Of a stretch of DNA of 64,000 nt, positions 6,428 to 62,775 are shown in pieces. Both the position numbers and the translations under genes were made by a program. This DNA comes from Patescibacteria group bacterium (GTDB lineage Bacteria > Patescibacteriota > Patescibacteriia > UBA9934), in the NCBI GenBank assembly GCA_041659765.1, contig JBAZXR010000001.1:787338-851337 (forward strand), given 5' to 3'. Under the pieces are notes generated by a model. The model was not told where the DNA came from. It did no database searches and saw nothing but the letters and a program-made list of their open reading frames with translations. Numbering within the stretch: the stretch's first letter is position 1; every line of letters begins with the position of its first letter.

Positions 6428-6630
6428 ACAAGATAGTAATAAAACTTCGGCGCCAAGCCGATGTTTTTAGTTATCCCCATCGCAAAATCAGAGAACGCCT
6501 AAAAATATGGTGCAATGAATGTACAAACAAATTCCCCATGGCTTGCCTCTTCCCCAAGAGGCGAGCTGTGGGGTTTGTTGTTTGCACGATCGTTTGTTGA
6601 ATCCGGTTTGCTGATCCTTAACAATTAACT

Positions 6631-8464: not shown

Positions 8465-8486
8465 GGGTCGACGCATGGGTCGACCC
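8465..8486. repeat. 22-nt REP-like hairpin GGGTCGACGCATGGGTCGACCC (intergenic copy)
   Basis: Perfect 8-bp stem GGGTCGAC/GTCGACCC; identical 22-mer at 11479; near-identical at 62754; diverged at 21149. Confidence 0.55.
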
Positions 8487-8510
8487 CAACCTCGAAATAA
8501 TAACTATCAT

Positions 8511-9408: not shown

Positions 9409-10545
9409 ATGTTACTACCCACTGTTCACGACCCGAGAACCGAGATTCACGACGACGCAATTGAGTGCCTGCTCTCGGGGCGTATCTTCCGCATCACCGC
9501 GAAGGTGCACCGCTACATGCTCAAAGAGGGCATGATCCTCATGTGGAATAAGAAGCAAAGCTTGTTCCAGCTCCACGACAACGCTGATAATGCCTACCGT
9601 GCGTGTTTCCACACCATGGGAACCTACGGCTGGAATGACGTCACCGCCACGGAGGGCGAGCTCCGGCGGATCGAGGACATTAGCGCGAAGAACATGGAGC
9701 TTTGCTACTTCCTGTTCGACTGGAAGACCATGAAACCGGCGCAACGCAAGCAGTACGAGCAGACATCTCTCGAAATCGCCGCCGAACTGAAAGACGTGAC
9801 GGACGAGCACAAGGTGCGGATGCGGGACTGGACGCTCCAGGCCGCCACCGTACGCGACAGCCTCGGGCGGACGAATCCGAACGTTGCTGGTAACCGCCAG
9901 TCCGGCAGCGCACGGGAAGGCGAACAGCGTGCAGCGAATATCCGCGAAATTTGTAAGCGATACGACCCGCGCAAAGTGGTTCTCTGGGAGGAAATCCGCA
10001 AGAACGAATCGGATCTCCGTAAGGTGCTCACCGCGGTTCGGAGCGTGCTCGACATGCTCAATCGAGGTCCGGTGTCGGCAGCACCCCTCCTTGGATCGTT
10101 GCCGCCGCTCGTGGATATCCTCGGGCGCACGCACGACCTTCAGTGGCGCCACGCGTTCCGCAAAAGCGCGAATGACCTCAAGGCGGCAACCAATGCCGCG
10201 ATGAAGCAAGATCACCGTGAGATCAAGAAACGCTTGCACTGGGTCGAGGCGTCTCTCGGCAACCTAGAAAAAGAGCGCGAGCTGGCACAGTGGCGATTGG
10301 AAACGGCGATGGCCGTATCCCGCCGTCCGCACCGGAATGACGAGCTAAAGCTCCAGTTCGACCGTCTCGTAGCATTCCGACAGAGCTGCGAGGTGACGCC
10401 CGACGGCAAGTGGAAGACGGAGGTCATGAACCGCTTCCGCGAAGGTCTCGATAATGCCATCCTCGCCTGGCCCCACGTGCACGCGAGCAACAGGTCCTTC
10501 GAACTCGTGTCTGCCTGGCTCGACGAATCTATCGTCCGACTCTAG
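9409..10545 (+). CDS. hypothetical protein, markedly G+C-rich relative to flanks
   Basis: 378 aa ORF preceded by ggagg-type RBS; no recognisable domain; many antisense ORFs typical of high-GC coding; followed by hairpin ggaccgc...gcggtcc + T-run (10550-10590). Confidence 0.6.
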   Translation: MLLPTVHDPRTEIHDDAIECLLSGRIFRITAKVHRYMLKEGMILMWNKKQSLFQLHDNADNAYRACFHTMGTYGWNDVTATEGELRRIEDISAKNMELCYFLFDWKTMKPAQRKQYEQTSLEIAAELKDVTDEHKVRMRDWTLQAATVRDSLGRTNPNVAGNRQSGSAREGEQRAANIREICKRYDPRKVVLWEEIRKNESDLRKVLTAVRSVLDMLNRGPVSAAPLLGSLPPLVDILGRTHDLQWRHAFRKSANDLKAATNAAMKQDHREIKKRLHWVEASLGNLEKERELAQWRLETAMAVSRRPHRNDELKLQFDRLVAFRQSCEVTPDGKWKTEVMNRFREGLDNAILAWPHVHASNRSFELVSAWLDESIVRL

Positions 10546-10609
10546 CCTCTGGACCGCTCTGCACCTGCAGGCGGTCCGTTTATTTTGTTATGATGGATGT
10601 AACAACTCT

Positions 10610-11314
10610 ATGCAACGCTATTCTATTTTGTTCGGGATCCTAGGATTACTCGCCGGGCTGTCGCTTCTTTTTTATATCAATCTCTTCCCCAGCTCGCCTA
10701 AAATAACGCCTCCGCTTCCACCTGAAACCCTAGTTTATAACGTCGGCCCTGCGCATCAACTGCCAGGAACTGAAGCTATGCTCTACGAGAACTCGGCCGT
10801 TGGTATCCGTTTTGGTTATCCGAAGAGCTATGGAACAGTGGTGGTCGAGAAGCGCGATGGTGGAGTGTTCTTTTCGTTCTCACCAAGCGGAGTCTCGAAT
10901 GATCCCAAGCGCGTGTACTTTATGGCTGGGGAGTACGCCGAGCCGGTAGGTCATAACGGATATTGGGGCGATCTTTCTTGGTATGTACAACCGGATCCGC
11001 GCTGGATGGCGCAACCTGACGTTTGCGCGCTCTTCAAAGAAGCAGCCAAAACAATGCCCGCCTGGACAGCCGGTTTTGCAGCCGCCCAGTGTGAAAACAT
11101 TCCGCTAGGCCCAACCACCATGATGGCCAAACTCACTACTCCCCCAAACGCCACTTTTCTCATCCCCTCGTTTCACACCGCAACTGACGGTGTGACCATC
11201 GATATGTTCACGGCCTCGGACGAGCGTCTCCTAGGTAAAGAGGGTTTTACTGATCCTGCTGTGAATATAGAGCGTCTCGTTAAAAGTATTGAATTTATCG
11301 AGCCAACCAAGTAA
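10610..11314 (+). CDS. hypothetical membrane-anchored/secreted protein
   Basis: Start set at MQRYSILFGILGLLAGLSLLFYINLF (N-terminal hydrophobic anchor). Confidence 0.5.
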   Translation: MQRYSILFGILGLLAGLSLLFYINLFPSSPKITPPLPPETLVYNVGPAHQLPGTEAMLYENSAVGIRFGYPKSYGTVVVEKRDGGVFFSFSPSGVSNDPKRVYFMAGEYAEPVGHNGYWGDLSWYVQPDPRWMAQPDVCALFKEAAKTMPAWTAGFAAAQCENIPLGPTTMMAKLTTPPNATFLIPSFHTATDGVTIDMFTASDERLLGKEGFTDPAVNIERLVKSIEFIEPTK

Positions 11315-11325
11315 GCTCACCGGTC

Positions 11326-12363
11326 ATGTCGCCGAAATCATCCTTACTTCTCATGCTTCTCGGAACCACGGTCTTAACCGGGTTTCTTGTCGTGCCCCCG
11401 TTCACGAGCGTTACATACCGAGCAACCAATCCGACCAGACATTACCTGACGCTGGCGGGGGCGCGATCCGTTGAAGGAGGGTCGACGCATGGGTCGACCC
11501 CTACCTCCGCGACTATTCAATTCGTGGGCGATATCATGCTGGCGAGAAATGTTGAACAATACATTGCGACCTACGGCCAGGATTATCCTTTTGCAAAAGT
11601 TGGCGATCTGCTTTCAAATAATGATTTATTGATTGGAAACTTCGAAGGGACAGTTCGCGCAAAGCAAAATATCGAGGGAACGAATGTCATGTACTTTGAT
11701 ACAACTCCGGATAACGTGTCCATGCTCGCAAAACAGGGTTTCGGCCTCTTATCACTATCGAATAACCACGCGGATGACTTCGGTCGGGACACACTAGTGC
11801 TAACTCGACAGACAATTCTCGACGCCGGTATTACACCCTTTGGCGATGCCTGGGAAAGCGAGAAATTCGTAGCGCATAAAACTATCAATGGAATGAACTT
11901 TGCGTTTATCGGCTACCACGAATTCAATGAGAAGACCGACGGCGTGATCGAGGCAATCAAAACAGAGAAAGCGGCGGGAAACTTTGTCATCGTCATGCCA
12001 CACTGGGGAGTTGAGTACAAACATGATCCGTCGGGTTCTCAAGTTTTTGCGGCACATCAGTTTATCGATGCCGGAGCTGACGCGATCATTGGCGCACATC
12101 CGCACATTATTGAAACCGTTGAAACGTACAAGAACGTTCCGATCGTTTACTCGCTTGGCAATTTTCTCTTTGACCAGGATTGGTCGGAAGATACGAAGCG
12201 GGGCATGGCGGTTCGGTTAACCGTCGAAAACGAAAAGCTGACGCTCAAATTCGAACCGTTGTATCTCGAAAAAAGACAAATGACCCCAGCAACGGGAACC
12301 AAGAAGCAAGAAATGCTGGATGCGCTCGGGGTGACGACGGGAGTGCTCGAACTCAGTCGATAA
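11326..12363 (+). CDS. CapA/PgsA-family metallophosphatase-like protein (poly-gamma-glutamate capsule synthesis family) with N-terminal anchor
   Basis: 345 aa; GDIMLARNV..., NNHADDFG, GAHPHII motifs characteristic of CapA family. Confidence 0.7.
   Translation: MSPKSSLLLMLLGTTVLTGFLVVPPFTSVTYRATNPTRHYLTLAGARSVEGGSTHGSTPTSATIQFVGDIMLARNVEQYIATYGQDYPFAKVGDLLSNNDLLIGNFEGTVRAKQNIEGTNVMYFDTTPDNVSMLAKQGFGLLSLSNNHADDFGRDTLVLTRQTILDAGITPFGDAWESEKFVAHKTINGMNFAFIGYHEFNEKTDGVIEAIKTEKAAGNFVIVMPHWGVEYKHDPSGSQVFAAHQFIDAGADAIIGAHPHIIETVETYKNVPIVYSLGNFLFDQDWSEDTKRGMAVRLTVENEKLTLKFEPLYLEKRQMTPATGTKKQEMLDALGVTTGVLELSR
11479..11500. repeat. 22-nt REP-like hairpin GGGTCGACGCATGGGTCGACCC, in-frame inside capA-like gene
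   Basis: Identical to 8465 copy; translated in frame as (E)GGSTHGSTP(TS) in the linker between anchor and catalytic domain. Confidence 0.6.
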
Positions 12364-15840: not shown

Positions 15841-16542
15841 CTAGACGCTGGTCCCAGCCTGGAGTGATTCTTTGAGGGCGTTCACGAAACTTGTTTCGTC
15901 GCCCATCACCTCACACGGTTCAAACCGGCGGAGGATGTTTTCGTTATCGTCCAGTTCCATCAAACACTCGACCTTGATCTCCCCTCGGCCAACGGGATCG
16001 ACTTGAACCCGCAAGACACGAAATGGCGGTTCAGTCTCTTCGTTCCAATCCCACTCGTCCACCACCCCGACCGCCGTAGGCATAAAAATACCGGAACATG
16101 ACTGCACGTAAACCTGGTGACGATCACCCGCCTCACGATGGCGCAGGGTGACGATAACTCCGCCCTGCGGATCTTCGAGCACTTCCTTGAGCGTACTCGG
16201 CTTCGCAAGCAGAGTCTCGAAGTTCGCGACGTGCTTGGCATGATCTGGCTGGTACACGGTGAAGTTCCTGCGGAGCCCGTGGACGAGCAAACTGTCGTCT
16301 TGATTCCGACTAATCCGCGGATGTACCAAGACCGGCGGGTAGGTACAACGCGACCAGTAATCATTTCCGCCCTTACGCCCCGCCGGGCCAAGCACGAGCT
16401 CGGTCAGCCCACCATGTCCAACGGACCGGCGCACCTCCGTAATCGTGGCCAACAGGGCATCCGACTTGGGAAAACGCGGTGACAAAAGATCAATCTGAGC
16501 CCCCACAAAGCCCGACTTCAAAAACCGCTCAACGCTTTTCAT
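15841..16542 (-). CDS. hypothetical protein, G+C-rich, immediately 3' of tRNA-Leu(TAA)
   Basis: 233 aa ORF; no recognisable domain; composition differs from flanks. Confidence 0.5.
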   Translation of the reverse strand: MKSVERFLKSGFVGAQIDLLSPRFPKSDALLATITEVRRSVGHGGLTELVLGPAGRKGGNDYWSRCTYPPVLVHPRISRNQDDSLLVHGLRRNFTVYQPDHAKHVANFETLLAKPSTLKEVLEDPQGGVIVTLRHREAGDRHQVYVQSCSGIFMPTAVGVVDEWDWNEETEPPFRVLRVQVDPVGRGEIKVECLMELDDNENILRRFEPCEVMGDETSFVNALKESLQAGTSV

Positions 16543-16639
16543 GACTCCTCCCGAAGCGATTGTTAAAGAAGCGCGGGAAATTTACCAAGATAAGCAGAAT
16601 GTTTCAATACAAAAAACCGGGCGTTAAAGCTCGGTTTTC

Positions 16640-16726
16640 TGGTACCGGGAGTGGGACTCGAACCCACGATCCATTTCTGGAAGCAGATCTTAAGTCTGCC
16701 GCGTATACCAACTTCGCCATCCCGGC
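16640..16726 (-). tRNA. tRNA-Leu (anticodon TAA)
   Basis: Reverse complement GCCGGGATGGCGAAGTTGGTA...GGCAGACTTAAGATCTGC...long variable arm...GGTTCGAGTCCCACTCCCGGTACCA. Confidence 0.85.
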
Positions 16727-16835
16727 ATGCCGGAAATACTACCAAAATACCAGAAAAACCACAAGTTCAAAACTCCGCTAACCATTGACAAAAAGCATAA
16801 AAACTGCTAGTTTAATCACATGCAAGGAGGCATGC

Positions 16836-17384
16836 ATGTCCCAATCACCTCGTGGTCAGGTTATCAATGCAAGTGATCGTTTTACCGGTAAGAACACCGG
16901 CAGAACGGAGGGCTCTGGCGAAGTGAAGGAGTACAAGGATATTCACCGGCCGTCGCCACCAGCCGAGCACCCGGGCAATATTGCCCACCGGCTCACTACC
17001 CAGCTCAGAATGGAGTGGCCCAACCTTGGGGCGCATGTCCAAGTGCTGATTGAAAAGAGCCTAACAAACAAGGCGCTCGATCAAGCACAGGCGGTACTGT
17101 TGATCGAGGCGCTCGAGGCTAGGCAGGACGAGCTGGAACTACAGGATGTGTCCGCCAACAGGCTCCTTGAAGTCAAAGATCAGCGGTATGAAATGCTCCG
17201 ACATTTGATCGGCGCACCAAGAAGGCTAGAAAGGCAAGACATGCTATTCGGGCAGCCGTGCGATCGGCACATGTGTCCCGCTGGCATTGAACTGTCCGCC
17301 TTCAGAGCATCCAAGACTGGACTCGACGCCAGGACAATCATCATGTTCGTGTACCTGTGCATCGAATCTCAGCTCGACGTCTAG
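16836..17384 (+). CDS. hypothetical protein
   Basis: Start at ATG seven nt after aaggagg RBS; 182 aa; no recognisable domain. Confidence 0.5.
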   Translation: MSQSPRGQVINASDRFTGKNTGRTEGSGEVKEYKDIHRPSPPAEHPGNIAHRLTTQLRMEWPNLGAHVQVLIEKSLTNKALDQAQAVLLIEALEARQDELELQDVSANRLLEVKDQRYEMLRHLIGAPRRLERQDMLFGQPCDRHMCPAGIELSAFRASKTGLDARTIIMFVYLCIESQLDV

Positions 17385-18926: not shown

Positions 18927-19226
18927 ATGTTCCTTCATGCTACAATTGGCTCATCTATGTCCTTCCCAGTAGCGTATTTCCTGATTCCTTTTGTCATTCT
19001 CGCCTTAATTGCCGGGCTGTTCCTGTTCTTTAACGTCTATCATATCCTCAAGTTTGGCATTGAATCTACTAGCACATTCGCTCTAGTCACCATCTACGTC
19101 ATTGGTTTTGCCTTTCTCTTGCTCATCAGCATGCTGCTCTTGAGCGGGTACAACTGGAACCAACAGATTGACCCGGCAGCCATTTTGCACCTGAACAATT
19201 CGCCCGCCAATAACTTCGGCCTATGA
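18927..19226 (+). CDS. small two-TM membrane protein
   Basis: 99 aa, two hydrophobic helices; upstream of bPH_2 gene. Confidence 0.4.
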   Translation: MFLHATIGSSMSFPVAYFLIPFVILALIAGLFLFFNVYHILKFGIESTSTFALVTIYVIGFAFLLLISMLLLSGYNWNQQIDPAAILHLNNSPANNFGL

Positions 19227-24465: not shown

Positions 24466-24562
24466 ATATGAGTAAGCATACCCCACCAAATATCTCTCGT
24501 AAAAAAAGCGACCGGCGCACAGTGGGTTTGAAACCCACCGCACACCGGCCATTACGAGTCAC

Positions 24563-26128
24563 CTAGTCACAGGTACAGGTCTTGAACTCCGGGTGCCGAG
24601 CACAGTAGCCCGGCCGGTCGTTCTCCATCTGCACTTTGTCTGCCAGGCACAGGCTTTGTGCCTGTGACCGCGCAATCAGCGGGAGCCCTCCAGACGACAG
24701 GCTGTAAGTGTTCCGTCCGGAATCCGCTTCCAGCATGTTGTCCGTGTACGCGTGCAGGTTGCCCACCAGCTTACGCTGTCCGGCCTGGCTGAAGAACAAG
24801 GCAAAGAAGAGCGCCACACCAGCCATCCCCACAATGGCCTTCGGGGAACCGCCGAGCAGAGCAGTGATCAGGTCCTGCACGAGTACTGGCAGAATGTAAC
24901 CATTGAAGTACTGAGCGACCGTCAGGATGGTCAGGAGAAAGAACCACGCCGCCACGAAGAGCCCCTTGTCCAGGACCACCTCACCGGTCATGGCCCAAAA
25001 AACGTTCACCGCAAGCCCAACGAGCGTCGCGCCCATTGAAACCTTCAGGTTGGCCGCCCGGGTCTCGCCCTGAACGGTCAGGTACTGCTTGTTCTGCCGT
25101 TCCTCGATCAGGTGGGCCGTGCTGGCTCCTGCCGAGGGTGAGGCTTCCTTAGCGTGACCATGAGCGTCTTTAGCGGCTGGCTTTGCTTTCGGCTCATCGT
25201 GAGCCGTGGGCAACACCACCTTCTTTCCGTCTTCGCCGACGTAGATGTCCTTCACCTGCACCGTCCACGGATCATCCACGAGGACGAAGAAGATGGAAGC
25301 CCAAACGGCGAAGAAGCTGACATCGCCCCAAAAGGCCAAGGGGCTGAAGCCCGGCCTAAGCCAGGTCGCCAGCACAATCACGCCAACCGTGAGGCTAGAC
25401 GCTTTGAGGAGCTGACCGAAGGCCTGGGTCAAGCTGAACTTCTTCTTCTTTCCTTCCGAGCTGGTTCGACCAGTGCGGAAGGCGAGGTAAGCCACGACGC
25501 CAGTCACGCAGAGAGGGGCGCCCACAACGACGAGCGTCGCAATAGCCGCCACCCACCACCATTTGCCGGTAGACGGAGCAACCTTGGCCGGCACACTGGC
25601 CGGAGCGCCAAAGATGGTGTGTTTGGCCCACTCCACCTTGGCCTTCATGCCGTTGGTCACCACGTTGTCATCAATCCAGTCCTTCATCTCGAGCGAAGCC
25701 TGCTCAGCCATCGGGACGTTCTTGAACCCTTCGTCGAGCGCTGCCTCCAGAAACGGAGCCAACTCATCGAGCACACCGTGCAGGAACATGGTGGACTCTT
25801 CCCGCTCGGCCTTGCTCGGCCGAGCAGTCGGATCAGGATCGATCACTCGGGTCAAACGGACCGCGTGATCGTGCGCCAGGTCGGCACGCGCCTCAGTCAT
25901 GTCCGGCAATTTGCCGTACGGCTGAGCGCCTTCCGTCAAGGCCAGAATGGCCCGGCGGAGCTGACGCCGCTCTTTGGGGCGTTCAATGATCTCTTCCTGC
26001 TCGTTGTTACGGAGCATGAAGATCTCAGTCCACGCCAGGAGGGCGCGCTTCTGGCCTTCCTTCAGAACCACCGGCTTGGGCAGTTCAGGAGTCTTGGCCG
26101 GATCAGGGGTAGCAGATGCAGTAGACAT
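24563..26128 (-). CDS. hypothetical membrane protein, G+C-rich (cytoplasmic N-domain + about 8 TM helices)
   Basis: 521 aa; no recognisable domain. Confidence 0.55.
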   Translation of the reverse strand: MSTASATPDPAKTPELPKPVVLKEGQKRALLAWTEIFMLRNNEQEEIIERPKERRQLRRAILALTEGAQPYGKLPDMTEARADLAHDHAVRLTRVIDPDPTARPSKAEREESTMFLHGVLDELAPFLEAALDEGFKNVPMAEQASLEMKDWIDDNVVTNGMKAKVEWAKHTIFGAPASVPAKVAPSTGKWWWVAAIATLVVVGAPLCVTGVVAYLAFRTGRTSSEGKKKKFSLTQAFGQLLKASSLTVGVIVLATWLRPGFSPLAFWGDVSFFAVWASIFFVLVDDPWTVQVKDIYVGEDGKKVVLPTAHDEPKAKPAAKDAHGHAKEASPSAGASTAHLIEERQNKQYLTVQGETRAANLKVSMGATLVGLAVNVFWAMTGEVVLDKGLFVAAWFFLLTILTVAQYFNGYILPVLVQDLITALLGGSPKAIVGMAGVALFFALFFSQAGQRKLVGNLHAYTDNMLEADSGRNTYSLSSGGLPLIARSQAQSLCLADKVQMENDRPGYCARHPEFKTCTCD

Positions 26129-26274
26129 TGATGTTTCCTCCAGGGGCAGGCTTGCCCCAATTCAGTTGTTTTTCGGTTGTAAAAGGACAAATGAGTTTAA
26201 CTGAAACGACCAAGAAAGTCAATGGTTTAAGGTATTAGATTTCATGTTTTATTGGTCTTTTTCACTAAAAACAT

Positions 26275-26308
26275 TGACAAAACCCCTTTTTTATGCTATT
26301 ATTGTTAG
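26275..26308 (+). promoter_or_regulatory. sigma70-like promoter (TTGACA - 17 nt - TATTAT) in AT-rich divergent spacer
   Basis: ttgacaaaaccccttttttatgctattattg upstream of 26379 gene. Confidence 0.35.
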
Positions 26309-26378
26309 TTGAGTAACGATCGGGGAAGGTCCCTGAAACGTGCTCAGACGCTTGAGAAAACCCAATGTGAGGTGACTA

Positions 26379-27152
26379 ATGTTGACCCTTATCCTGTCCT
26401 TGTTCGTTTCCAGCGCCAACGCTGGTGACTCCGTCTACGTCCCCCGCGCCACGCTCGGCAGTCGCCCGGCGGTGGTCAGCGTGTGCCCGGACGGCGTGAG
26501 TGTGGTCGGGCGCATCCGCGCCGGCACCATGCTCCCGTACGCGGAGCTGTGCGCTGATCACCAGGAGGCCATGGCGAGCATCGCCACGGACCGCGCCCTG
26601 GTGGACGGCCAGGTCGACGTTGATCGCATCGACGCGGTCACGCGCCGCCAGGAAGTCGAAAGTGACCGCACGATCGGCGTGATCGACGCCAACACCCGGC
26701 GCGAGGTGTCCCTCCAGGGCATCGAGCACGGCGTGGCGACCTACGCCCGCGGTGACATGGTGGTCACGGGTGACAAGCCCGCCGCCATTGCCGCGGAGTT
26801 TGACAACCTGCCGGCCGGCGGTGGCTACAGCTTCTACGATCGCCGGGTCGGACAGTCGTTTACGGCGTTCGACACGCTGAACGCACTGGACGGCAACGGC
26901 GGGTACTCCGGTGGCCTGGTCGGACAGACGACGCAGTCGACCTCGTCGACCAGCGCCACCACCGCGACGGTGAACTCGACCGAGCTCCAATCCGACCTGC
27001 AAAAGGCGGACGAACAGAGCGCCAGCCTGCGGACACAGGTGGGCGGTCTGCAGGGCCAGGTCTCGGTCCAGGAAGCCGAGCTCAAGGCGAAGCAAGCCGA
27101 GATCGACAGGCTGGCCCCGCTCGCCGATGAGTCCTGGTGGCCCGGCTACTAG
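26379..27152 (+). CDS. hypothetical secreted protein with C-terminal coiled coil, G+C-rich
   Basis: 257 aa; MLTLILSLFVSSANA signal peptide. Confidence 0.55.
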   Translation: MLTLILSLFVSSANAGDSVYVPRATLGSRPAVVSVCPDGVSVVGRIRAGTMLPYAELCADHQEAMASIATDRALVDGQVDVDRIDAVTRRQEVESDRTIGVIDANTRREVSLQGIEHGVATYARGDMVVTGDKPAAIAAEFDNLPAGGGYSFYDRRVGQSFTAFDTLNALDGNGGYSGGLVGQTTQSTSSTSATTATVNSTELQSDLQKADEQSASLRTQVGGLQGQVSVQEAELKAKQAEIDRLAPLADESWWPGY

Positions 27153-27270
27153 GAACACGTGACTGGTCTCCTCAAATACACGCAAGTGTGTTTGAGGAGA
27201 CCGGATCTACTGAGTGACGAACGGAATTTTCCGTTGGCCACTCACAAGTCCCTGTTCGGAGGTAATTCAC

Positions 27271-27918
27271 ATGCGTTCCTTTCTCATGGTCATGCAGTTC
27301 ATGATTGTCTTCTTCACGGGCATGGCCCGCGCGGAGGACAGCCGCGTCCTGCCACACGCCGCGGACATCGCGTCCCTGGGCTGCGTGAACGGAGACGTTC
27401 CCGTGCCCGTGGGCGTCATCCTCACCTGGCGTCCGCCCAACTGTACGGCCGCGGACGGCCTGGTAGAGATCACGAATGACACCCCCGGGTGCATCGTGCC
27501 GAACATCTCCGGGGTCTCCAAACCGAAGGTCGTGGAAGCCTTCGGAATGAATCTCGCGGTCATTGGCTTCTACAAGTCGGACGGCCGGTTCCTGCCCTGT
27601 ATCCCCCAGCGGAAGAAGGACCAGAACACCGGCAACACGACCATCGGTCACTACTGGATGTTTCTCCCGACGCCGATCGTCACGATCTCCGGGTCGGGGT
27701 ACACGGTGCCGCGAGACTGGCACATCACCGATGTCACAATCGACGCCACCACGGACGTTCCCGTGGTTGCGTTGAACGGCAGCATTGGCGGTCTGACGAA
27801 GACGGCCCCGCTCGCCTTCACCTGCTCCACCGTTGAGTTCAACTCGGCGAGTGACAGTGAACTGTGGAGCAACGGACTCCCGGTCTTCAACTTCCAGTAC
27901 ACGAACTGCCCGCACTAA
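27271..27918 (+). CDS. hypothetical secreted Cys-containing protein, G+C-rich
   Basis: Start at MRSFLMVMQFMIVFFTGMARA after ggagg RBS. Confidence 0.5.
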   Translation: MRSFLMVMQFMIVFFTGMARAEDSRVLPHAADIASLGCVNGDVPVPVGVILTWRPPNCTAADGLVEITNDTPGCIVPNISGVSKPKVVEAFGMNLAVIGFYKSDGRFLPCIPQRKKDQNTGNTTIGHYWMFLPTPIVTISGSGYTVPRDWHITDVTIDATTDVPVVALNGSIGGLTKTAPLAFTCSTVEFNSASDSELWSNGLPVFNFQYTNCPH

Positions 27919-27981: not shown

Positions 27982-28012
27982 ACAAACAAAAAACCGCCCG
28001 AAGGCGGTTTTT
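27982..28012. terminator. bidirectional rho-independent terminator
   Basis: aaaaaaccgcccgaaggcggttttttt. Confidence 0.65.
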
Positions 28013-28018
28013 TTAGTC

Positions 28019-28405
28019 TTAGACGTTGCCCGTAGCCTTACTGAGGTTATCGATCACGAAACTGCTGATGGCGTAAGCTGAGAGGAGAACCACTAGACCA
28101 ACCACTGCCGAGATCAAAATGTTCTTTGCGGAATCAACTTTCTTAGAGTCACCAGCGGCCGTCATCCAAGTGAAACCGGCGTAGATGGTCAGAACCAAGA
28201 ACACGATACCGAGGATGCCCAAGAAAGTTTGGATTAGCGATCCAACAGTCTGAGTTAAATCCTGCTTCTGTTGACCAGAGCTGGTACCGACGGCATCAAG
28301 GTTATCGTTTAAGTTAATTGCATGCACCGTAAGCACGGATGGTAACAATGTCATTGCGGCCAAACCAGCACCGAAGGCAAACTTTTTGAATTTGTTCATA
28401 GACAT
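28019..28405 (-). CDS. pilin-like small protein 1 (signal peptide + two-helix VirB2/TrbC-like core)
   Basis: Core YAGFTWMTAAGDSKKVDSAKNILISAVVGLVVLLSAYAISSFVI. Confidence 0.6.
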   Translation of the reverse strand: MSMNKFKKFAFGAGLAAMTLLPSVLTVHAINLNDNLDAVGTSSGQQKQDLTQTVGSLIQTFLGILGIVFLVLTIYAGFTWMTAAGDSKKVDSAKNILISAVVGLVVLLSAYAISSFVIDNLSKATGNV

Positions 28406-28469
28406 ATTAAATGTTGAATAAAGTATACATCGCCCATAACTCATGTGAAATAACTATACACACCCGTGC

Positions 28470-28856
28470 CTAACAATTGGGTGGAATACATCCCGGCGTG
28501 CTAGTAGGACTAAGGCTTCCCGAGTATGACGAGTCTGATGTGGCCGACTGCGACTGCTGTAGTGCGTTGATAATGAACGAAGAAATAGCGAAAGCCGAAA
28601 GAGTGATAACAAGACCAACGGTTGCACTGATTAGCATACCCTTAGCTCTATCCACTAACTTTGAATTCCCCGCAGAGGTCATCCAGATAAAACCGGCGTA
28701 GACCACAAGTATAAGAAAAACAACTCCCAAGATACCAAAGACCGCACTGATAATGACACCAATCAGCTGAGGCAAGGTTTGCGAAACCGTATATCCGGCG
28801 TTACCGCCGGCCTGGGAGAGCCCCGTGGTTGTCACAATCGCCAAAAGCCTGGTCAT
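28470..28856 (-). CDS. pilin-like small protein 2
   Basis: Core YAGFIWMTSAGNSKLVDRAKGMLISATVGLVITLSAFAISSFII. Confidence 0.6.
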   Translation of the reverse strand: MTRLLAIVTTTGLSQAGGNAGYTVSQTLPQLIGVIISAVFGILGVVFLILVVYAGFIWMTSAGNSKLVDRAKGMLISATVGLVITLSAFAISSFIINALQQSQSATSDSSYSGSLSPTSTPGCIPPNC

Positions 28857-28857
28857 A

Positions 28858-29250
28858 TTATCCTCCCTGTGGATTTCCTGAAATTCCGCCCGTAGAAAGT
28901 GCGGTGAAAAGTGCGCTAGTCACCGCATAAGCAGCTACAATGATAACCGCGCCAATAACTGCGCCGGTCATAATGTCTTTTGCTTTAGCTACTCGCTTAT
29001 CATTTCCGGCAGCCGTCATCCAAAGACCACCAGCGTAAACCATGAGACAGAGAAAAGTAAGTCCTAGAAGACCAAGAACCGGCTGAATAACGCGAGCCCC
29101 AATAAACTGGGCGATATTCATGTTCGAATCAATCTTCGCGGCTACTCCGGTCTGAGATAGGCCAGAATCCCCAACGCTAAATTGTGCGGATACGCCAAGA
29201 GGAAGCAGGAAGGACAACGCCATGAGCCCAGTTACTACCAGTTTTCGCAT
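28858..29250 (-). CDS. pilin-like small protein 3
   Basis: Signal peptide MRKLVVTGLMALSFLLPLGVSA; core YAGGLWMTAAGNDKRVAKAKDIMTGAVIGAVIIVAAYAVTSALF. Confidence 0.6.
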   Translation of the reverse strand: MRKLVVTGLMALSFLLPLGVSAQFSVGDSGLSQTGVAAKIDSNMNIAQFIGARVIQPVLGLLGLTFLCLMVYAGGLWMTAAGNDKRVAKAKDIMTGAVIGAVIIVAAYAVTSALFTALSTGGISGNPQGG

Positions 29251-29297
29251 ATCGTGCCCGCACCTTCAGAGAAGATGCGGACTTCGATAGGTGACAA

Positions 29298-29708
29298 CTA
29301 ACCTTGAGTAGCGGTGAGGAAAGAAGAAATAACGAACGTGGTGATAGCGTAGGCTGACAGGATGATCGCCAGACCAATGATACCGCTGATGATGAGCTTC
29401 TTAGCTTCACCAACTTTCTCATCGTTACCACCGGAAACCATCCACTTGAAGCCACCGTAGAGCACAATGACTACAGCTACTACTCCGAGGAAACCAAGGG
29501 CTACCTTAATGAGGTTGCCGATGGTCTGCTTCAGGTCACCCTGGCCAAGACCAGTGGAATCACCGAAGTCAGAGCTGATGATATCCTCAGCGCCCAGTGG
29601 CTGAGCATGGGCTACTGGCGCAAATGACGGAACTAAGCGCATGAACGGAAGTGCGAGCGCGAGCCCGAGCACGGCGCTCATCCCAAATCGTACCAAGGAT
29701 TTCACCAT
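29298..29708 (-). CDS. pilin-like small protein 4
   Basis: Start set at MVKSLVRFGMSAVLGLALALPF; core YGGFKWMVSGGNDEKVGEAKKLIISGIIGLAIILSAYAITTFVI. Confidence 0.55.
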   Translation of the reverse strand: MVKSLVRFGMSAVLGLALALPFMRLVPSFAPVAHAQPLGAEDIISSDFGDSTGLGQGDLKQTIGNLIKVALGFLGVVAVVIVLYGGFKWMVSGGNDEKVGEAKKLIISGIIGLAIILSAYAITTFVISSFLTATQG

Positions 29709-29764
29709 AGGAATGGTAAGTAATAAATTAAAAATGAGAAATCTCCTGAACATTATACACCAGA

Positions 29765-30349
29765 CTAAGTACCGAGGACTGATCCTGTGGTCAACCCAGT
29801 AATGACCGCCTGGGTCAGCGTATAGGCTCCGGCAATAACCGCCAAACCTACAACCGTCCAAACTAATACCGCCTTACCTTTAGCCACCATTTTGTCATTA
29901 CCCATGGAAGTAATCCACAGCACTCCGCCGTAAATGAACATGAGCAAGGTGACGGAACCAATGATTGATAGAATGGCCTTGATCAAGTTACCGATAATGA
30001 CCTGCGGGTTTGCGGTGCCGAGAGGATTAATAAGCGAGACCGACGCGCCTGTGGCAGAACCAGAGGTTAGAGCATTTGAAGTCGTTGATGGAAGCGTTGA
30101 TTCATTGGCGGCGAAACAGGCTCTTCGCTGATCAAAACAGCCCTGAGTGTCACGGTCAAAGTTTGCCACACAATCTGGACAAGCGTTGCCAGTACACTGT
30201 GCATCAATACAGGTCTGCTGAATAAGTTCCGCAGGCGCAATACACGTATCGTATTGTGCGGCACAGTCTACAGCGGCAAAAACATGTGCCTTAGGAGCCA
30301 GGAACAGACCCAGGGCCGCAGTAAAAAGAAGAAACGCTTTGATTCGCAT
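29765..30349 (-). CDS. pilin-like small protein 5 (Cys-rich mature N-terminus)
   Basis: Core YGGVLWITSMGNDKMVAKGKAVLVWTVVGLAVIAGAYTLTQAVI; 10 Cys in N-terminal region. Confidence 0.6.
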   Translation of the reverse strand: MRIKAFLLFTAALGLFLAPKAHVFAAVDCAAQYDTCIAPAELIQQTCIDAQCTGNACPDCVANFDRDTQGCFDQRRACFAANESTLPSTTSNALTSGSATGASVSLINPLGTANPQVIIGNLIKAILSIIGSVTLLMFIYGGVLWITSMGNDKMVAKGKAVLVWTVVGLAVIAGAYTLTQAVITGLTTGSVLGT

Positions 30350-30350
30350 A

Positions 30351-30887
30351 TTACTGGGTATTGATAATATTTTCTGCTCCTACTCCGCTTGGGGTACAAC
30401 CTGTTGTTTGCCCAGGTCTACAGGTAGTTGAAGAATTAACAGTGTCTTCAATGGTGGCTCCAGGGGCAACGCCGGAAATAGCGGCGATCAAGAAGTTAAC
30501 AAAAGCGTAAGAGCCGAAGATTATAGCGAGGCCAATCACGGCGCGGACGATAATTTCTTTGCCTTGTTCAATCTTCTTTGGATTACCCATAGAGGTCACC
30601 CAAGTGAAACCGCCGTAAAAGAACATCAGAAGCGCGACTGAACCACTGATAGCTAAAATGCCAATAGAGATGTTAACGAAGATCTGCAACATGTCAGAGA
30701 GCTGGCACTGTCCTGAGTCTCGACAGGGACAAGGGGCTGAAGCGGATGAGCAAATGTTCGCAAAAATAAGACCCTGGCTCATGATGCTTGAGTATCCCCC
30801 GCTCACTGTCTGCGCATGCGCTACTGCCGGCAACCAAAAAGAAACAACTAGACCAAGTGCTAAAAAAGCGTTGCGAAGAAAACGCAT
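30351..30887 (-). CDS. pilin-like small protein 6 (Cys-rich)
   Basis: Core YGGFTWVTSMGNPKKIEQGKEIIVRAVIGLAIIFGSYAFVNFLI. Confidence 0.6.
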   Translation of the reverse strand: MRFLRNAFLALGLVVSFWLPAVAHAQTVSGGYSSIMSQGLIFANICSSASAPCPCRDSGQCQLSDMLQIFVNISIGILAISGSVALLMFFYGGFTWVTSMGNPKKIEQGKEIIVRAVIGLAIIFGSYAFVNFLIAAISGVAPGATIEDTVNSSTTCRPGQTTGCTPSGVGAENIINTQ

Positions 30888-30906
30888 ACTCACAAATAAT
30901 ACCACG

Positions 30907-33910: not shown

Positions 33911-34813
33911 TCACTTCTTAGCAATGACGATAAAACTCAGTACCCCCAGCGTTGGGTCTTTACGGTATCTTCGACGAACATGAGGACGGTCGCGCTTGAG
34001 CTTAGCTTCGTCCATCACAATCTCCGGGATGATGTCGATCAGCGTAAAGCCGAGGTCGCTTAATGTCTTCTCGTACACGCTCGGACGAACGCGATTGGGA
34101 ATTCCCGAGAACTTGGCGAGTCTGTAGAGCAAACGAGGGTAGCGATAAATGTTCAATGGGTCGCGGTCACGAATCACTCGCGTATGTGTTTGCAAATCAA
34201 CATGAGCCACGAGTGCTCCGCCGGGAGCGAGAACTCGACCAACCTGCGCCAAAATTTCAGGCACATGGTCAAAATGCTCAAAAGCGGCGTTACTAACTAC
34301 GAGATCAACACTTTCAGCTGGCAACCAGTTAAATGAAAAGGACTGATCCTGCTTGAAGATCAGGGTAGTTGGCTGCTTAATTTCATAAGCCAACAACGCT
34401 TCTTCCGCACGCTTCCTGGCGCCAGCGTCATTGATCGAGGCGATGACCGCATTATGCAATTCCTTCGGCGCGCGGTCAGCGAGTGGATTCTTATCATAGG
34501 CCGTATACGACTCGGCGCCCTTGGCAACCAAAATTAAGCCGACGCCCAGGTCTGCGCCAGGGCCAAGCTCGAGGATGCGCTTGCCCGCAAATGGTTGAGA
34601 GCCGAAGCCTTTCTCGATGAGCGCCCGTTCCCAACGTTCCACCACTTCATGGTCGTATTTCACGGCTCGACGCGTGTCGTCCACCGAAAATTCGCGCGGG
34701 CGGTGATAGCCCGTTACCCGATATCTAAACTTATTAGCAAAGAGGATTCCAAGCCCCAGCCACCAAAAAAACCATTGTCGCAACATATACGAATAGTGTA
34801 ACATCCTTTGCAT
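33911..34813 (-). CDS. class I SAM-dependent methyltransferase
   Basis: ILELGPGADLG motif I, VSNAAFEHF motif. Confidence 0.6.
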   Translation of the reverse strand: MQRMLHYSYMLRQWFFWWLGLGILFANKFRYRVTGYHRPREFSVDDTRRAVKYDHEVVERWERALIEKGFGSQPFAGKRILELGPGADLGVGLILVAKGAESYTAYDKNPLADRAPKELHNAVIASINDAGARKRAEEALLAYEIKQPTTLIFKQDQSFSFNWLPAESVDLVVSNAAFEHFDHVPEILAQVGRVLAPGGALVAHVDLQTHTRVIRDRDPLNIYRYPRLLYRLAKFSGIPNRVRPSVYEKTLSDLGFTLIDIIPEIVMDEAKLKRDRPHVRRRYRKDPTLGVLSFIVIAKK

Positions 34814-35423
34814 GTCCTGGCTTTTTGAACGGAAACTTTATCAATCTGAGAAAAACGGCTTGATTCTCTGTAAGAAACTTTTCGGCCACTGGGAAGTCTT
34901 TGTAGACGGCTTCTATCAGTCCGCGCCCTACATCAAAAAAATGTGGCGAACCGGTCTGCGCCAAGTTTCGTCGATGCCAGCCGTGTCGAGGATCCTCGTC
35001 CTCGGGCTCGGCGCTGGCAGTATCATCAACGATCTGCACTCGAGATATCCCGACGCGTTCATCACCACTATCGAGTACGATCCGACCATGGTGGTAATCG
35101 CCAGACAACTAGAAATGTTCGATCAAAAACTCCCCGTAAATATCATTGTCGCCGATGCAGTCACGGCAGTTCCAGCCCTCGAAGGCTCCTTCGATCTAAT
35201 AATCGTGGACCTCTACAAAGGCGGAGTAACAGCCGAGGCGCTCCAGCATCCTGACTTTGTCGAATCGATTACGCAGAAACTTTTACCGAACGGAACTCTA
35301 ATCCTGAACGTCTTTAAGAACGTCGAATTATTTCCGCTGTTCGACCGATTCCTAACCAGACAGAACACGTGGAAGTATTCGTTCAATGCATTGGCAATGT
35401 ATAAAAAATCGACCCCCCGTTAA
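34812..35423 (+). CDS. spermidine-synthase-like methyltransferase-fold protein
   Basis: ILVLGLGAGS...IIVDLY pattern of spermine/spermidine synthase-like family. Confidence 0.45.
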   Translation: MSWLFERKLYQSEKNGLILCKKLFGHWEVFVDGFYQSAPYIKKMWRTGLRQVSSMPAVSRILVLGLGAGSIINDLHSRYPDAFITTIEYDPTMVVIARQLEMFDQKLPVNIIVADAVTAVPALEGSFDLIIVDLYKGGVTAEALQHPDFVESITQKLLPNGTLILNVFKNVELFPLFDRFLTRQNTWKYSFNALAMYKKSTPR

Positions 35424-35451
35424 GCGGAGGGCCGAACGAGTCACGTGAGAA

Positions 35452-36513
35452 CTAGAAGAGCGGGAGGTTGCCGAGCGAGATCACGTCCGGGCGAACGTCC
35501 GGGCCTTCCGTGAAGACCGCAAGCGTGCGCTCGTAGATCGCACCGACCTTCTCGAGCAGCTGCTTCATGGCATCGAGCGTTCCACCAGTGGAGACCACAT
35601 CATCCACGATCACCACGTGCTTGCCACGGAGCATTTCCGCGTCGCTGACGGAGATGTACAGCGTCTGCACGCGGTCCGTGGTGATGCTCTTCACCTGCAC
35701 GGACACGCAGTCGCCCATGTAGGGCTTCTTCTCCTTGCGCGCAACCACGGTGGGCAGCTTGAGTTCGCGACCGATGACGTGGAGGAGTGCCTGCGCCTTG
35801 CCATCCGGCATGATGAGCACGTCCACTGGTGGCATGAGCTTGGCCGCCAGCTGCTGCCCCAAGAATTCGGTCAGCTCCCAATCTCCGAGGAGGTTGAAGA
35901 GCGCAACGGAGATGCCAGGAGCGACCTCCCGGATGGGGAGCTCGAGCGTGCGCGAACCGATCTGCACCTTGTGAACACGAGACACGGTCACCTCCTTTTT
36001 GCCGTTGAACACCTGATCGAACAGTTTGATGAGTGCTTCTTCCAAGAACTGCGCGCGCGACTTCTTCCCATCGGTCAGGAAGGAGTGTGGATCCGAGCTG
36101 GAGCATCCATACCGCTCCGCCATCACAGCCCCTACCGTTGTGTTGAAGAACCCGATCGCCAGGGCTTCCTCGACCGCTTCGGCCGGGAGAACTACGTACT
36201 CGGTCCGGGCTTCGTACTCACGACCGTTCGGGTCCACGAGGACGATGTCCGCGGCATCCCGCCACACGCCATTCCCCAGGAACGCTCCGTTCTCGATCCC
36301 CAAGCCCCACGAGCCGGGCCTGGTCTTCTGCGCTCCGATGGCACGGGTGCGGGCTCCTCTGCGCGTCTGGCCCTCGAGGGGCTGACAGTTTTCGCCTGAA
36401 TCCATGTTCTCTTGGTAGAGCTTGAACACCTTAGGGCCAACAGCCAGCAAGGCGTTGGTCGTGCCCAGGAACTTCTCTTGGCTATGTGAGCCAACCACGA
36501 TCTCCAGAATCAT
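35452..36513 (-). CDS. fusion protein: YjjX/ITPase-XTPase-like NTP phosphatase domain + type I phosphoribosyltransferase domain; G+C-rich
   Basis: N-terminal TRRGARTRAIGAQK and GLGIENGAF resemble YjjX TRAGARNRV.NA / IEAG; C-terminal VVIVDDVVSTGGTL PRPP-binding motif. Confidence 0.5.
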   Translation of the reverse strand: MILEIVVGSHSQEKFLGTTNALLAVGPKVFKLYQENMDSGENCQPLEGQTRRGARTRAIGAQKTRPGSWGLGIENGAFLGNGVWRDAADIVLVDPNGREYEARTEYVVLPAEAVEEALAIGFFNTTVGAVMAERYGCSSSDPHSFLTDGKKSRAQFLEEALIKLFDQVFNGKKEVTVSRVHKVQIGSRTLELPIREVAPGISVALFNLLGDWELTEFLGQQLAAKLMPPVDVLIMPDGKAQALLHVIGRELKLPTVVARKEKKPYMGDCVSVQVKSITTDRVQTLYISVSDAEMLRGKHVVIVDDVVSTGGTLDAMKQLLEKVGAIYERTLAVFTEGPDVRPDVISLGNLPLF

Positions 36514-36522
36514 GTTCTCCCC

Positions 36523-37458
36523 CTAACCGTCCATGACGGCGTTGATCATTGATTTCACGAGGCTCAACACCTCGAACGGCGGCTGATCCTTCACGAGTCC
36601 CGCAGTGACCGGACACGAGTCCGTGATCCACACGCGGTAGAACCCGGCGTTCAGAAACCGCTTCCAGGCGTCCTTTTCCATGACGCCGTGCGTAGCAAAG
36701 GCACTGACCTTCACCGCGCCTGCCGCCTTCATAGCATGCATGCACTCGATGGTCGTTCCGCCGGAATGCACGAGATCATCCACGATGACCACGTTCTTCC
36801 CCGCGGGATCGCCCTCAATCACCGTCACGATCCGTTTGTCGCCGTGCCGCTGCTTGCGGCAGATGACAAACGGAAAGAGCGGTTTGCCCTGGTCGTCCGA
36901 GAAAAGCACCTTGAAGCGCTTCCACGCCCCCTCGTCCGGAAACGCGACAGTGACGTCGCCCTCCTGTTCGAGCCGGGCCTTGAGCACCTTCGTGCCAGTC
37001 TTGAACCGCGGCGCGATGTTCGCCCCGAAGTAATGCCGGATCGGCAGGGCATGAACGTCCCACATGTAGAGCGGGATCGGTCCAGGACCAGACGGCGGCA
37101 ACGCAGAGAGGAGCCGGGCGAGCGTACTTGCCGTGGCAACTTGTCCTTCCATGTCGATGCGTTCCATGGTTCCCGTCGGGAAGTACGGAAGCAGGAGGCG
37201 AAAGGACTTCGGACGGGCCTCGGCAATGGCGAGCATCACGCTCCACTGTTCGAATACCGTTTCCGGGGAATCGAGCGAGGCAAGATACGCGACGTCGCGG
37301 TTGCGGAGGTCATCGAACCCCCGGATCATGATGTTCGGCCAGGCATCGGGGAACCGTTTCCAGTCCACGACGCCGAGCTCAATGCGCCCATCGAGCTCGG
37401 CCATCTGGCGAGCAATCGTCATGGCCTGCGGGCAGTGAAAGAGCAGTCGCTTGTCCAT
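36523..37458 (-). CDS. prs: ribose-phosphate pyrophosphokinase (PRPP synthetase)-like
   Basis: Start at MDKRLLF; VVIVDDLVHSGGTTIECMHAMKAAGAVKVSAFATHGV aligns to Prs C-terminal PRPP-binding region; G+C-rich. Confidence 0.6.
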   Translation of the reverse strand: MDKRLLFHCPQAMTIARQMAELDGRIELGVVDWKRFPDAWPNIMIRGFDDLRNRDVAYLASLDSPETVFEQWSVMLAIAEARPKSFRLLLPYFPTGTMERIDMEGQVATASTLARLLSALPPSGPGPIPLYMWDVHALPIRHYFGANIAPRFKTGTKVLKARLEQEGDVTVAFPDEGAWKRFKVLFSDDQGKPLFPFVICRKQRHGDKRIVTVIEGDPAGKNVVIVDDLVHSGGTTIECMHAMKAAGAVKVSAFATHGVMEKDAWKRFLNAGFYRVWITDSCPVTAGLVKDQPPFEVLSLVKSMINAVMDG

Positions 37459-37601
37459 GTGATGTGTCCTCCCGGATAACAAAGTAACTTGCCGGGCAAC
37501 TTTTGTACACTCTATGTCGTAGATGCATGGTGACACTTTAATCACTATTGCTAATATTAGTGATATTATTTATTCTATAAACAACGAATAACGTCGTTGA
37601 T

Positions 37602-58254: not shown

Positions 58255-58261
58255 AGGTGCT

Positions 58262-58501
58262 TCTGATATTTATATATAAGATAACTAGTAGTAACAGTGA
58301 GTCTGTGGATGAAGTGGATAACGCTTGTTGTCCCCGTCCCATTTGAGTTCCTGACGATTTCACCTGTGTGAAAAGTCTGTGAACAGCTGTGAGGACGTTT
58401 GGGATAACTGGCAGTAGTCTACACCATTTAACTCTGTCCCCGTTTTATCCGCAATCCTATCCCCAGACTTATCCATCCCCATATCAACAGACTTATCCAC
58501 A
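58262..58501. promoter_or_regulatory. oriC candidate part 1: AT-rich DUE-like stretch + DnaA-box cluster in dnaA-dnaN spacer
   Basis: ttctgatatttatatataagataactagtag (58262-58292); boxes ctgtggatg 58303, agtggataa 58313, ttatccgca 58443, ttatccatc 58468, perfect ttatccaca 58493. Confidence 0.55.
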
Positions 58502-58525
58502 TTATGTGCACCTCGGGTGGTCGAA

Positions 58526-58601
58526 ATCATCCTGAGGAGCTCTTAGCGACGAAGGATCTGATTGGTTGACCATTCAGATTCTTCGCTACGCTCAGAATGA
58601 C
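58526..58601. repeat. ~75-nt palindromic element, copy C (inside origin spacer, abutting dnaA stop)
   Basis: atcatcctgaggagctcttagcgacgaaggatctgattggttgaccattcagattcttcgctacgctcagaatgac. Confidence 0.65.
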
Positions 58602-58609
58602 TCAACGAA

Positions 58610-62753: not shown

Positions 62754-62775
62754 GGGTCGACGCAGGGGTCGACCC
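62754..62775. repeat. REP-like hairpin variant GGGTCGACGCAGGGGTCGACCC abutting tig stop codon
   Basis: One loop substitution versus the 8465/11479 copies; likely acts as tig terminator stem. Confidence 0.5.

Follow-up and report, generated by a model that had tools for sequence, protein, structure and literature searches.

VirB2-like arrays with 2-11 variable pilins have been described in Patescibacteria and are proposed to aid adaptation to different hosts (PMC12102498); arrays of VirB2 paralogues also occur in Bartonella and Anaplasma (cited in PMC12102498). Type IV secretion system (T4SS) genes are sometimes origin-proximal, and VirB6 is reported to be hard to detect in some Patescibacteria classes (PMC12102498). 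Lassalle et al. (2015, PMC4450053) reported a link across bacteria between recombination and gene G+C content that does not depend on codon optimality. The present analysis concerns a G+C-rich block of three genes, named here isl1 (521 amino acids, aa), isl2 (257 aa), and isl3 (215 aa), which abuts a pilin array at positions 24563-27918 of a 64,000-nucleotide (nt) stretch, the window, of contig JBAZXR010000001.1 from a Patescibacteria group bacterium (GCA_041659765.1). A preliminary description of this DNA had read the compositional contrast of the block as a sign of horizontal acquisition. The block is instead probably an envelope module made up of three orphan genes, fast-evolving, passed on vertically, and specific to one clade, a narrow Uhrbacteria-like lineage of Patescibacteria.

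A three-gene block at a fixed locus

An isl1 profile scored by HMMER against all 1.84 billion representative proteins recovered eight isl1 relatives in total, the window among them. Seven of the eight lie on contigs that were readable (the window, L001, L002, L003, L004, L006, and L007), L002 being a fragment. Word-index searches returned each protein itself and one or two relatives; isl2 orthologues were missed there and recovered via synteny.

All seven readable relatives sit at this same locus. The order in all six full loci runs from a solute-binding protein (SBP) gene through six or seven PF18895 pilin genes to isl3 and isl2 on one strand and isl1 on the other, followed by genes for a flippase, Wzy, and a SpoIID-like protein, and on to RuvB; in the L002 fragment, isl1 is joined to the flippase gene. 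When synteny was compared in related genomes, as the preliminary description had proposed, the trio adjoined the pilin array in each of the six full loci, which come from one clade; one of these genomes (L004) is named Candidatus Uhrbacteria. The same junctions are found in six independent assemblies (NCBI, ENA, JGI, and Logan). A distant relative, L005 (flippase 45% and RuvB 73% identical), which was the sole return of the flippase query in metagenome contigs, lacks both the trio and a pilin array next to the flippase gene.

Marks of mobility were sought around the block. The nearest tRNA genes lie at 16640 and 39984, and just chance-level direct repeats of at most 19 nt span the block borders. 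No integrase is present, the block flanks encoding the flippase and pilins, and no phage, plasmid, or IMG/VR similarity of the block was found.

Some peculiarities of the individual loci may be recorded here. L003 (CAYGEQ010000019.1) belongs to a metagenome-assembled genome (MAG) named 'uncultured Gammaproteobacteria bacterium'; as it bears the trio, a pilin array of the Patescibacteria kind, and a flippase sharing 82% identity with that of the window, the contig is probably mis-binned. In the L004 Uhrbacteria MAG, the reading frames of the flippase (10001-11460), isl2 (6496-7337), and RuvB (~16051-16617) are broken, more likely through frameshift assembly errors than because these are pseudogenes. 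Other small genes in the vicinity of RuvB likewise differ strongly between the window and L001 (15841-16542, minus strand, 37% identity; 16785-17384, plus strand, without detectable match; 18927-19226, plus strand, 38% identity), RuvB itself being 94% identical. An AAA_28 gene occupies, in L001 and L007, the place where the window has an unrelated 199-aa open reading frame (ORF).

Third-position G+C and divergence

The G+C content of the block is 0.605, compared with 0.508 for the remaining window (whole-window mean 51.3%), and the block ranks above every other 3356-bp window (mean 0.514, standard deviation 0.027; runner-up 34101-37456, 0.572). The contrast estimated by eye in the preliminary description is thus borne out; its flank figure of 45-50% was somewhat low, the computed value being about 47-53%. 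In 300-bp windows, G+C is 0.58-0.70 within the block, dips to 0.43 at an internal spacer, and is 0.44-0.55 outside. That spacer (26129-26378, G+C 0.39), formerly taken as a boundary of the block, lies inside it between the divergent genes; the left boundary is a strong terminator at 24509-24551.

The four non-coding spacers of the block have a G+C content of just 0.39-0.51, and the excess is located at third codon positions, where G+C content (GC3) is 0.745 in isl1, 0.876 in isl2, and 0.856 in isl3 as against 0.41-0.66 in ordinary genes. Codons ending in G or C are favored for every amino acid, NAY codons being 72-100% C-ending. In the codon-usage comparison that the preliminary description had called for, the three genes rank 1, 2, and 5 as outliers among 52 window genes, and are thus atypical in codon usage as well as composition. 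The bias is even along the genes: GC3 stays at 0.72-0.78 throughout isl1, and values at conserved and variable residues of the three genes are 0.80 and 0.78, 0.87 and 0.87, and 0.89 and 0.89. The bias is absent from the pilins and from trigger factor, proteins for which high abundance would be expected (pilin array GC3 0.41-0.56). Together these two observations argue against translational-accuracy selection, which was rejected on the equality of conserved and variable residues; the uniform GC3 fits either a regional G+C-favoring process or general selection for G+C in these messages.

The trio is GC3-rich against its own flanks in every full locus. Island and flank GC3 are 0.80-0.93 and 0.47-0.68 in L001, 0.73-0.91 and 0.47-0.50 (SBP, flippase) in L003, 0.70-0.87 and 0.46-0.51 (SBP, flippase, SpoIID) in L004, 0.80-0.89 and 0.50-0.64 in L006, and 0.64-0.81 and 0.34-0.56 in L007. 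Persistence of the bias was assessed at four-fold degenerate sites. Between the window and L001, flank sites at conserved residues differ in 46-66% of cases, with a four-fold-site G+C content (GC4) of 0.36-0.64; island sites differ in 35-52% of cases, mainly by G/C interchange, with GC4 at 0.73-0.90 in both genomes. A two-state (G/C vs A/T) decay model fitted to the flank four-fold sites gave a turnover of 0.89-1.23 per lineage, from which the ceiling for GC4 in a relic of a 100% G+C ancestor is 0.75 (against L001), 0.64 (against L003), and 0.66 (against L004). Observed island GC4 is 0.71-0.94, with isl2 and isl3 at 0.85-0.92 in the window, L001, and L003. Since these values lie mostly over the neutral-relic ceiling, the island G+C is a maintained synonymous-site equilibrium and not a relic of foreign origin.

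The proteins of the block have diverged rapidly. Between the window and L001, the flanking proteins are 83-94% identical, compared with 36% for isl1, 33% for isl2, and 80% for isl3; DNA identity is 75-78% in the flanks, and likewise in the isl3 region. In the closest pair (window and L002), the sole one in which synonymous sites are unsaturated, synonymous (dS) and nonsynonymous (dN) divergence are 0.79 and 0.20 for isl1 and 0.72 and 0.014 for the flippase fragment. The near-equal dS implies the same divergence time for isl1 and the flippase. The dN of isl1 is 14 times that of the flippase fragment and its dN/dS is about 0.25 (0.18-0.33 across all isl1 regions), so that isl1 is constrained, but weakly, and under net purifying selection. 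A claim of positive selection is not warranted: most pairs are saturated at synonymous sites, and the unsaturated pair gives a dN/dS of 0.18-0.33. The trio has been vertically co-inherited: it occupies the same position in all six full loci and in L002, is GC3-rich, shows a dS equal to that of the flippase, and bears no marks of mobility, and the proposal of horizontal acquisition drawn from its composition does not hold.

Two further features of composition were noted in the window. Blanket G/C-ending codon usage (GC3 0.77-0.80) recurs in three other genes, at 35452-36513 (minus strand), 36523-37545 (minus strand), and 9409-10545 (plus strand), whose products are an NTPase_I-T and phosphoribosyltransferase fusion, a PRPP-synthetase-like protein, and a 378-aa protein without Pfam match. 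Antisense ORFs of 325, 269, and 247 aa overlie all three island genes, at 25154-26131 (plus strand), 26376-27185 (minus strand), and 27172-27915 (minus strand). As the chosen frames show GC3 far over GC2 and conserved signal peptides, these antisense ORFs are by-products of high GC3 and not genes.

Predicted products and control elements

The three genes named in the preliminary description were confirmed as ORFs. NCBI annotates the island proteins as hypothetical, in a 'Patescibacteria group bacterium' MAG on an 897-kb contig. Sequence and profile searches of Pfam, NCBIfam, PHROGs, PADLOC, and PDB gave nothing significant for the three proteins or their relatives, in agreement with the earlier statement that none has a recognizable domain. 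No island protein matches PF18895 above the cut-off, no member of the three families matches TrbL, VirB6, or VirB8, and six isl1 family members gave no Pfam match at E up to 0.1. An origin of the island divergence as a target of a diversity-generating retroelement was also rejected: no reverse-transcriptase domain was found in the scanned window ORFs, and the divergence spans whole genes rather than a short variable repeat.

The ORF, hydropathy, and family alignment of isl1 (24563-26128, minus strand; MFA5947229.1, WC813_04395) indicate a 521-aa polytopic membrane protein, with a ribosome-binding site (RBS), GGAGGA, 7 nt 5' of its ATG. From hydropathy only, it would comprise a soluble N-terminal region of ~189 aa, about six hydrophobic spans, and a variable 75-aa His/Lys-rich loop. 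The family alignment shows four conserved Cys (C...GYC...CxC) in the C-terminal tail, and the transmembrane core is the best-conserved part. Full-length isl1 proteins of five relatives are longer (757-808 aa) and have in addition a low-complexity linker and, at the N-terminus, a conserved domain of ~140 aa; the 521-aa window protein lacks both. No copy or remnant of this domain is encoded elsewhere in the window, and its alignment gave no match in metagenome contigs.

The other two proteins are predicted to be exported. For isl2 (26379-27152, plus strand; MFA5947230.1; 257 aa, identified from its ORF and orthologues), the signal peptide MLTLILSLFVSSANA, with cleavage before GD, is followed by a T/S/P-rich linker, a coiled-coil-like C-terminal segment, and a terminal SWWPGY. 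Its orthologues are 28-43% identical, each with an A-x-A site, and its sole Pfam matches are weak, to coiled-coil families. An aromatic SWW…GY terminus occurs in three of the six isl2 orthologues, as SWWPGY (window 27129-27149), SWWDRFWGY, and SSWAYWFLSLLPGY (the latter two from L004, 6496-6774, and L007, 8753-9652), and may be a C-terminal anchoring or sorting signal. For isl3 (27271-27918, plus strand; 215 aa, identified from its ORF and RBS), the start is the conserved ATG at 27271, preceded by GGAGG at 27258-27262; the mechanical ORF begins at GTG 27214. Its signal peptide ends in …GMARA before ED. Five to six conserved Cys and a strand-rich prediction suit an extracytoplasmic protein, and orthologues in L001, L003, and L004 are 80%, 55%, and 29% identical to the window protein. 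By inspection, all six orthologues of both isl2 and isl3 have an N-terminal hydrophobic region and an A-x-A cleavage site (e.g. SANA/GD, ASA/QD, and ARA/ED, the slash marking the site), and neither protein has a lipobox. These features suggest that isl2 and isl3 are exported by Sec and cleaved by signal peptidase I.

The spacer between isl1 and isl2 holds two divergent promoter-like elements. The near-consensus TTGACA-17-TATTAT promoter reported in the preliminary description was found at 26274-26302 (plus strand), upstream of isl2-isl3, as TTGACA-17-TGcTATTAT, with 11 of 12 matches and an extended -10 TG. A consensus scan located a site for isl1, TTGACT-17-TAAACT, at 26194-26222 (minus strand). 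Both are kept in four aligned loci, as TTGACA…TGnTATTAT and TTGACT…TAAnCT, respectively. A stem-loop in the isl2 5' untranslated region (26310-26346, plus strand) keeps sequence and pairing in three of four loci, with little covariation and a single-sequence fold z-score of -1.96.

Between isl2 and isl3 lies a more strongly conserved hairpin, hairpin 1 (27164-27203, plus strand), an 18-bp stem on an invariant GGTCTCC/GGAGACC base, present in all six full loci. In a four-locus alignment, 95.8% of its cells are paired and 8 of 18 pairs are changed on both sides; none of 500 shuffles reached its score, and slid controls were just 32-49% paired. Its G-U pairs are compatible with the sense strand only. 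After the stem comes GGAUCUACUG, and a U-run is absent from all six loci; a Rho-independent terminator was rejected for this reason, and a dispersed repeat on the single occurrence of the hairpin in the window. Hairpin 1 would be an mRNA processing or stability element uncoupling the amounts of isl2 and isl3. A second hairpin at 27212-27243 (plus strand) has 12 pairs, with 83% of cells paired and two-sided changes in four pairs; in L003 and L007 a different hairpin sequence stands in its place. Rfam holds no family for the hairpins, the best matches being microRNA models at E 0.24 or worse, far under cut-offs. Elsewhere in the window, the palindromic motif GACGCAnGGGTCGACCCCnAC occurs three times (8468-8495, 11484-11507, and 62759-62782); it could represent a dispersed repeat, or else a terminator or operator common to these sites.

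Terminators delimit the block on both sides. At its left boundary, an intrinsic terminator (24509-24551, minus strand; 20-bp stem then T-run) parts isl1 from the flippase gene, the true start of which is at ~24465, as the orthologue alignment begins at residue 30 of the mechanical ORF; this neighbor was assigned by Pfam as a Polysacc_synt flippase. The strong terminator described earlier to the right of the block was recovered at 27988-28013, and is bidirectional, being common to isl3 and the last pilin gene (CCGCCCGAAGGCGG then T7 on the plus strand, with a scan match on the minus strand). Promoters and terminators of its own set the trio apart from the pilins, with which it is not co-transcribed.

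The six pilin-like genes beyond this terminator (28019-30905, minus strand) lie outside the G+C-rich block. They are indeed pilins, of the VirB2-like T4SS type and not type IV pilins: all six match PF18895 (T4SS_pilin) at E 1e-6 to 1e-10, with scores of 28.7-41.7 bits against a gathering cut-off of 26.6. Their identity to the L001 orthologues is uneven (57-96%), and in L004 and L007 the array comprises seven genes. The scanned ORFs of the 64-kb window include neither a VirB4-like nor a VirD4-like ATPase. The genes dnaN and dnaA lie at 57121-60013 (minus strand), and a replication origin is probably near 60-61 kb, which would place the trio ~31-35 kb, and the pilin array and trio together ~28-35 kb, from it. 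Between 20 and 60 kb the minus strand carries most of the genes, with GC skew negative throughout; on these grounds, isl1 would be co-directional with replication and isl2-isl3 head-on.

Origin of the block and known systems

A vertically inherited envelope module, the reading we hold to be probable, may work as follows. The two conserved divergent sigma-70-type promoters would drive isl1 and an isl2-isl3 operon, yielding a polytopic membrane protein and two Sec-exported proteins, and the intercistronic stem-loop probably sets differing mRNA stabilities for the isl2 and isl3 cistrons. The proteins evolve many times faster than their neighbors, yet under net purifying selection; high GC3 could be held either by GC-biased gene conversion at a recombining locus or by selection for G/C-ending codons or GC-rich mRNA. 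The products may form a complex of the envelope or surface, anchored by isl1 and exposing isl2 and isl3, at an interface with host cells or phages, possibly alongside the adjacent VirB2-like pilus. The functional surface module of the preliminary description is upheld in part: the A-x-A sites of isl2 and isl3, the polytopic isl1, and pilin adjacency in all six full loci agree with it, but the adjacency amounts to one evolutionary event and the trio is transcribed apart from the pilins. A membrane anchor with secreted components is plausible from these sequence features.

Several points weigh against this account. All loci are from one clade, so the pilin adjacency is a single phylogenetic event, and the dS comparison draws on 63 flippase codons. 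The decay model presumes neutral flank four-fold sites and a mutation process common to island and flanks, and window isl1 GC4 (about 0.72-0.75) is near the model ceiling for the L001 comparison. Identity of isl3 to the window is 0.29 in L004 and 0.55 in L003, although the flanks of L004 (0.82-0.90) are at least as close to those of the window as the flanks of L003 (0.79-0.86); this discrepancy hints at something beyond vertical descent, either replacement of the allele or a burst of change in that lineage. The membrane topology of isl1 is ambiguous: the loop that follows the first span is rich in lysine, which is at odds with a cytoplasmic N-terminus (N-in). AlphaFold2 models were unusable, with pLDDT 38 (isl1, three-sequence alignment) and 35 (isl3, two-sequence alignment), and no domain, structure, or family match speaks for a function of the trio.

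The incongruence between island and flank distances in L003 and L004 is what would be expected of a recombination hot spot exchanging divergent alleles within the clade, in the manner of capsule and O-antigen loci, with GC-biased gene conversion keeping GC3 high. Such a hot spot also accords with GC3 raised evenly over domains and over conserved and variable sites, and with the recombination-gene G+C link reported across bacteria (PMC4450053). Against it, dS equals flank dS in the closest pair and the spacers are not G+C-rich, though these are constrained as promoters and terminators; we regard it as possible, if doubtful. A still more tentative extension makes the trio a host-range or phage-interface determinant working with the VirB2-like pilus at such a hot spot, the GC3 plateau being the footprint of GC-biased gene conversion. 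Acquisition once, by the clade ancestor from a G+C-rich donor, would explain why the family is confined to one clade and why the distant L005 lacks trio and pilin array beside its flippase gene, with the composition an incompletely ameliorated relic. It would not explain the undecayed GC3: flank synonymous sites are nearly randomized, the relic ceiling of GC4 0.64-0.75 is exceeded by isl2 and isl3 at 0.85-0.92, island synonymous changes are mainly G/C interchange and not S-to-W, and no donor relative was found. Ancestral acquisition is accordingly judged unlikely. A recent horizontal island in this genome accounts for the atypical composition and codon usage and for the orphan genes, and yet is very improbable given the presence of the block at this position in each of the six full loci and in the L002 fragment, an isl1 dS equal to that of the flank, the lack of any tRNA, direct repeat, integrase, or phage, plasmid, or IMG/VR match, and the absence of donor relatives among the 1.84 billion proteins searched.

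Two further alternatives, both improbable in our estimation, concern expression and function. Very high expression, with GC3 reflecting translational codon selection, could be read from the near-consensus promoter, the position ~31 kb from dnaA, and the largely C-ending (72-100%) NAY codons; the preference is general, however, G-ending codons included, is not enriched at conserved residues, and is absent from the pilins and trigger factor. Alternatively, the trio could be unrecognized T4SS or pilus-assembly parts, isl1 being VirB6-like and isl2 and isl3 VirB8- or VirB5-like. Adjacency to the VirB2-like array in all six full loci and the reported difficulty of detecting VirB6 in some Patescibacteria classes (PMC12102498) would favor this, as would the roughly six spans and large loop of isl1 by hydropathy, a resemblance and not evidence of homology. 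The lack of TrbL, VirB6, or VirB8 matches for any member, of VirB4-like or VirD4-like ATPases among the scanned window ORFs, and of a shared transcription unit speak against it, and the trio is limited to one small clade whereas pilin arrays are widespread. The chance of an artefact, whether a chimeric assembly or G+C-rich DNA giving spurious ORFs, is practically negligible: the long antisense ORFs over all three genes would be in keeping with it, but the junctions recur in six independent assemblies, GC3 is far over GC2 in the chosen frames, signal peptides, Cys, and RBS are conserved, and dN/dS is below 1.

On the preferred reading of a vertically inherited module, unusual G+C content in a block of a reduced candidate-phyla genome does not by itself mean foreign DNA. 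The trio would be wrongly assigned by island callers that work from composition, because its bias is inherited and maintained in three fast-evolving proteins that are exported or sit in the membrane. If biased gene conversion or selection for G+C is the cause, the locus offers a compact natural test, with the same genes and the same neighbors in six lineages; a gene-conversion footprint would be an unusually clean bacterial example, since the plateau outlasts the randomized synonymous sites of neighboring genes. The three unannotated proteins, with their promoters and hairpin, lie beside pilin arrays thought to mediate host contact, and are candidates for the poorly understood cell-surface interface of Patescibacteria.

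Among known systems, hairpins that stabilize or process polycistronic mRNAs include the malE-malF REP (repetitive extragenic palindromic) element and the hairpins of the puf operon. Hairpin 1 resembles these in its long G+C-rich stem without U-tract between cistrons, its compensatory changes, and its sense-strand specificity; in contrast to dispersed REP elements, it is a single-copy element. The trio as a whole recalls the Patescibacteria VirB2-like arrays and T4SS (PMC12102498) in abutting six or seven PF18895 genes ~31 kb from dnaA, and departs from them in matching no T4SS profile tested, having no virB4 or virD4 nearby, and being restricted to one small clade. It shares with cases attributed to GC-biased gene conversion in bacteria (PMC4450053) a GC3 that is raised in specific genes, independent of codon optimality, and uniform over sites; its effect, by comparison, is extreme (+0.15 to +0.45 GC3), limited to three genes, and stable where flank synonymous sites are saturated.

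A classical horizontal genomic island is likewise a compact, terminator-bounded block of orphan genes with atypical G+C and codon usage. In contrast to such islands, the trio keeps its place in every relative sampled, neither mobility genes nor att repeats, tRNA, or donor were found, its synonymous divergence equals that of the flank, and its composition is not decaying. Closer in kind are the hypervariable surface-antigen and host-range loci (O-antigen, capsule, and the Bartonella and Anaplasma arrays of VirB2 paralogues), with which it shares a fixed site, exported or membrane products, divergence faster than that of its neighbors, and a position beside variable pilin paralogues and envelope polysaccharide genes. 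Unlike the cassettes swapped at those loci, the trio is orthologous and syntenic, has a G+C content higher and not lower than the genome, and lacks adhesin or glycosyltransferase domains. The block probably belongs to a known kind, the fixed-position, fast-evolving surface-protein locus, to which it adds the unusual twist of a stable G+C plateau.

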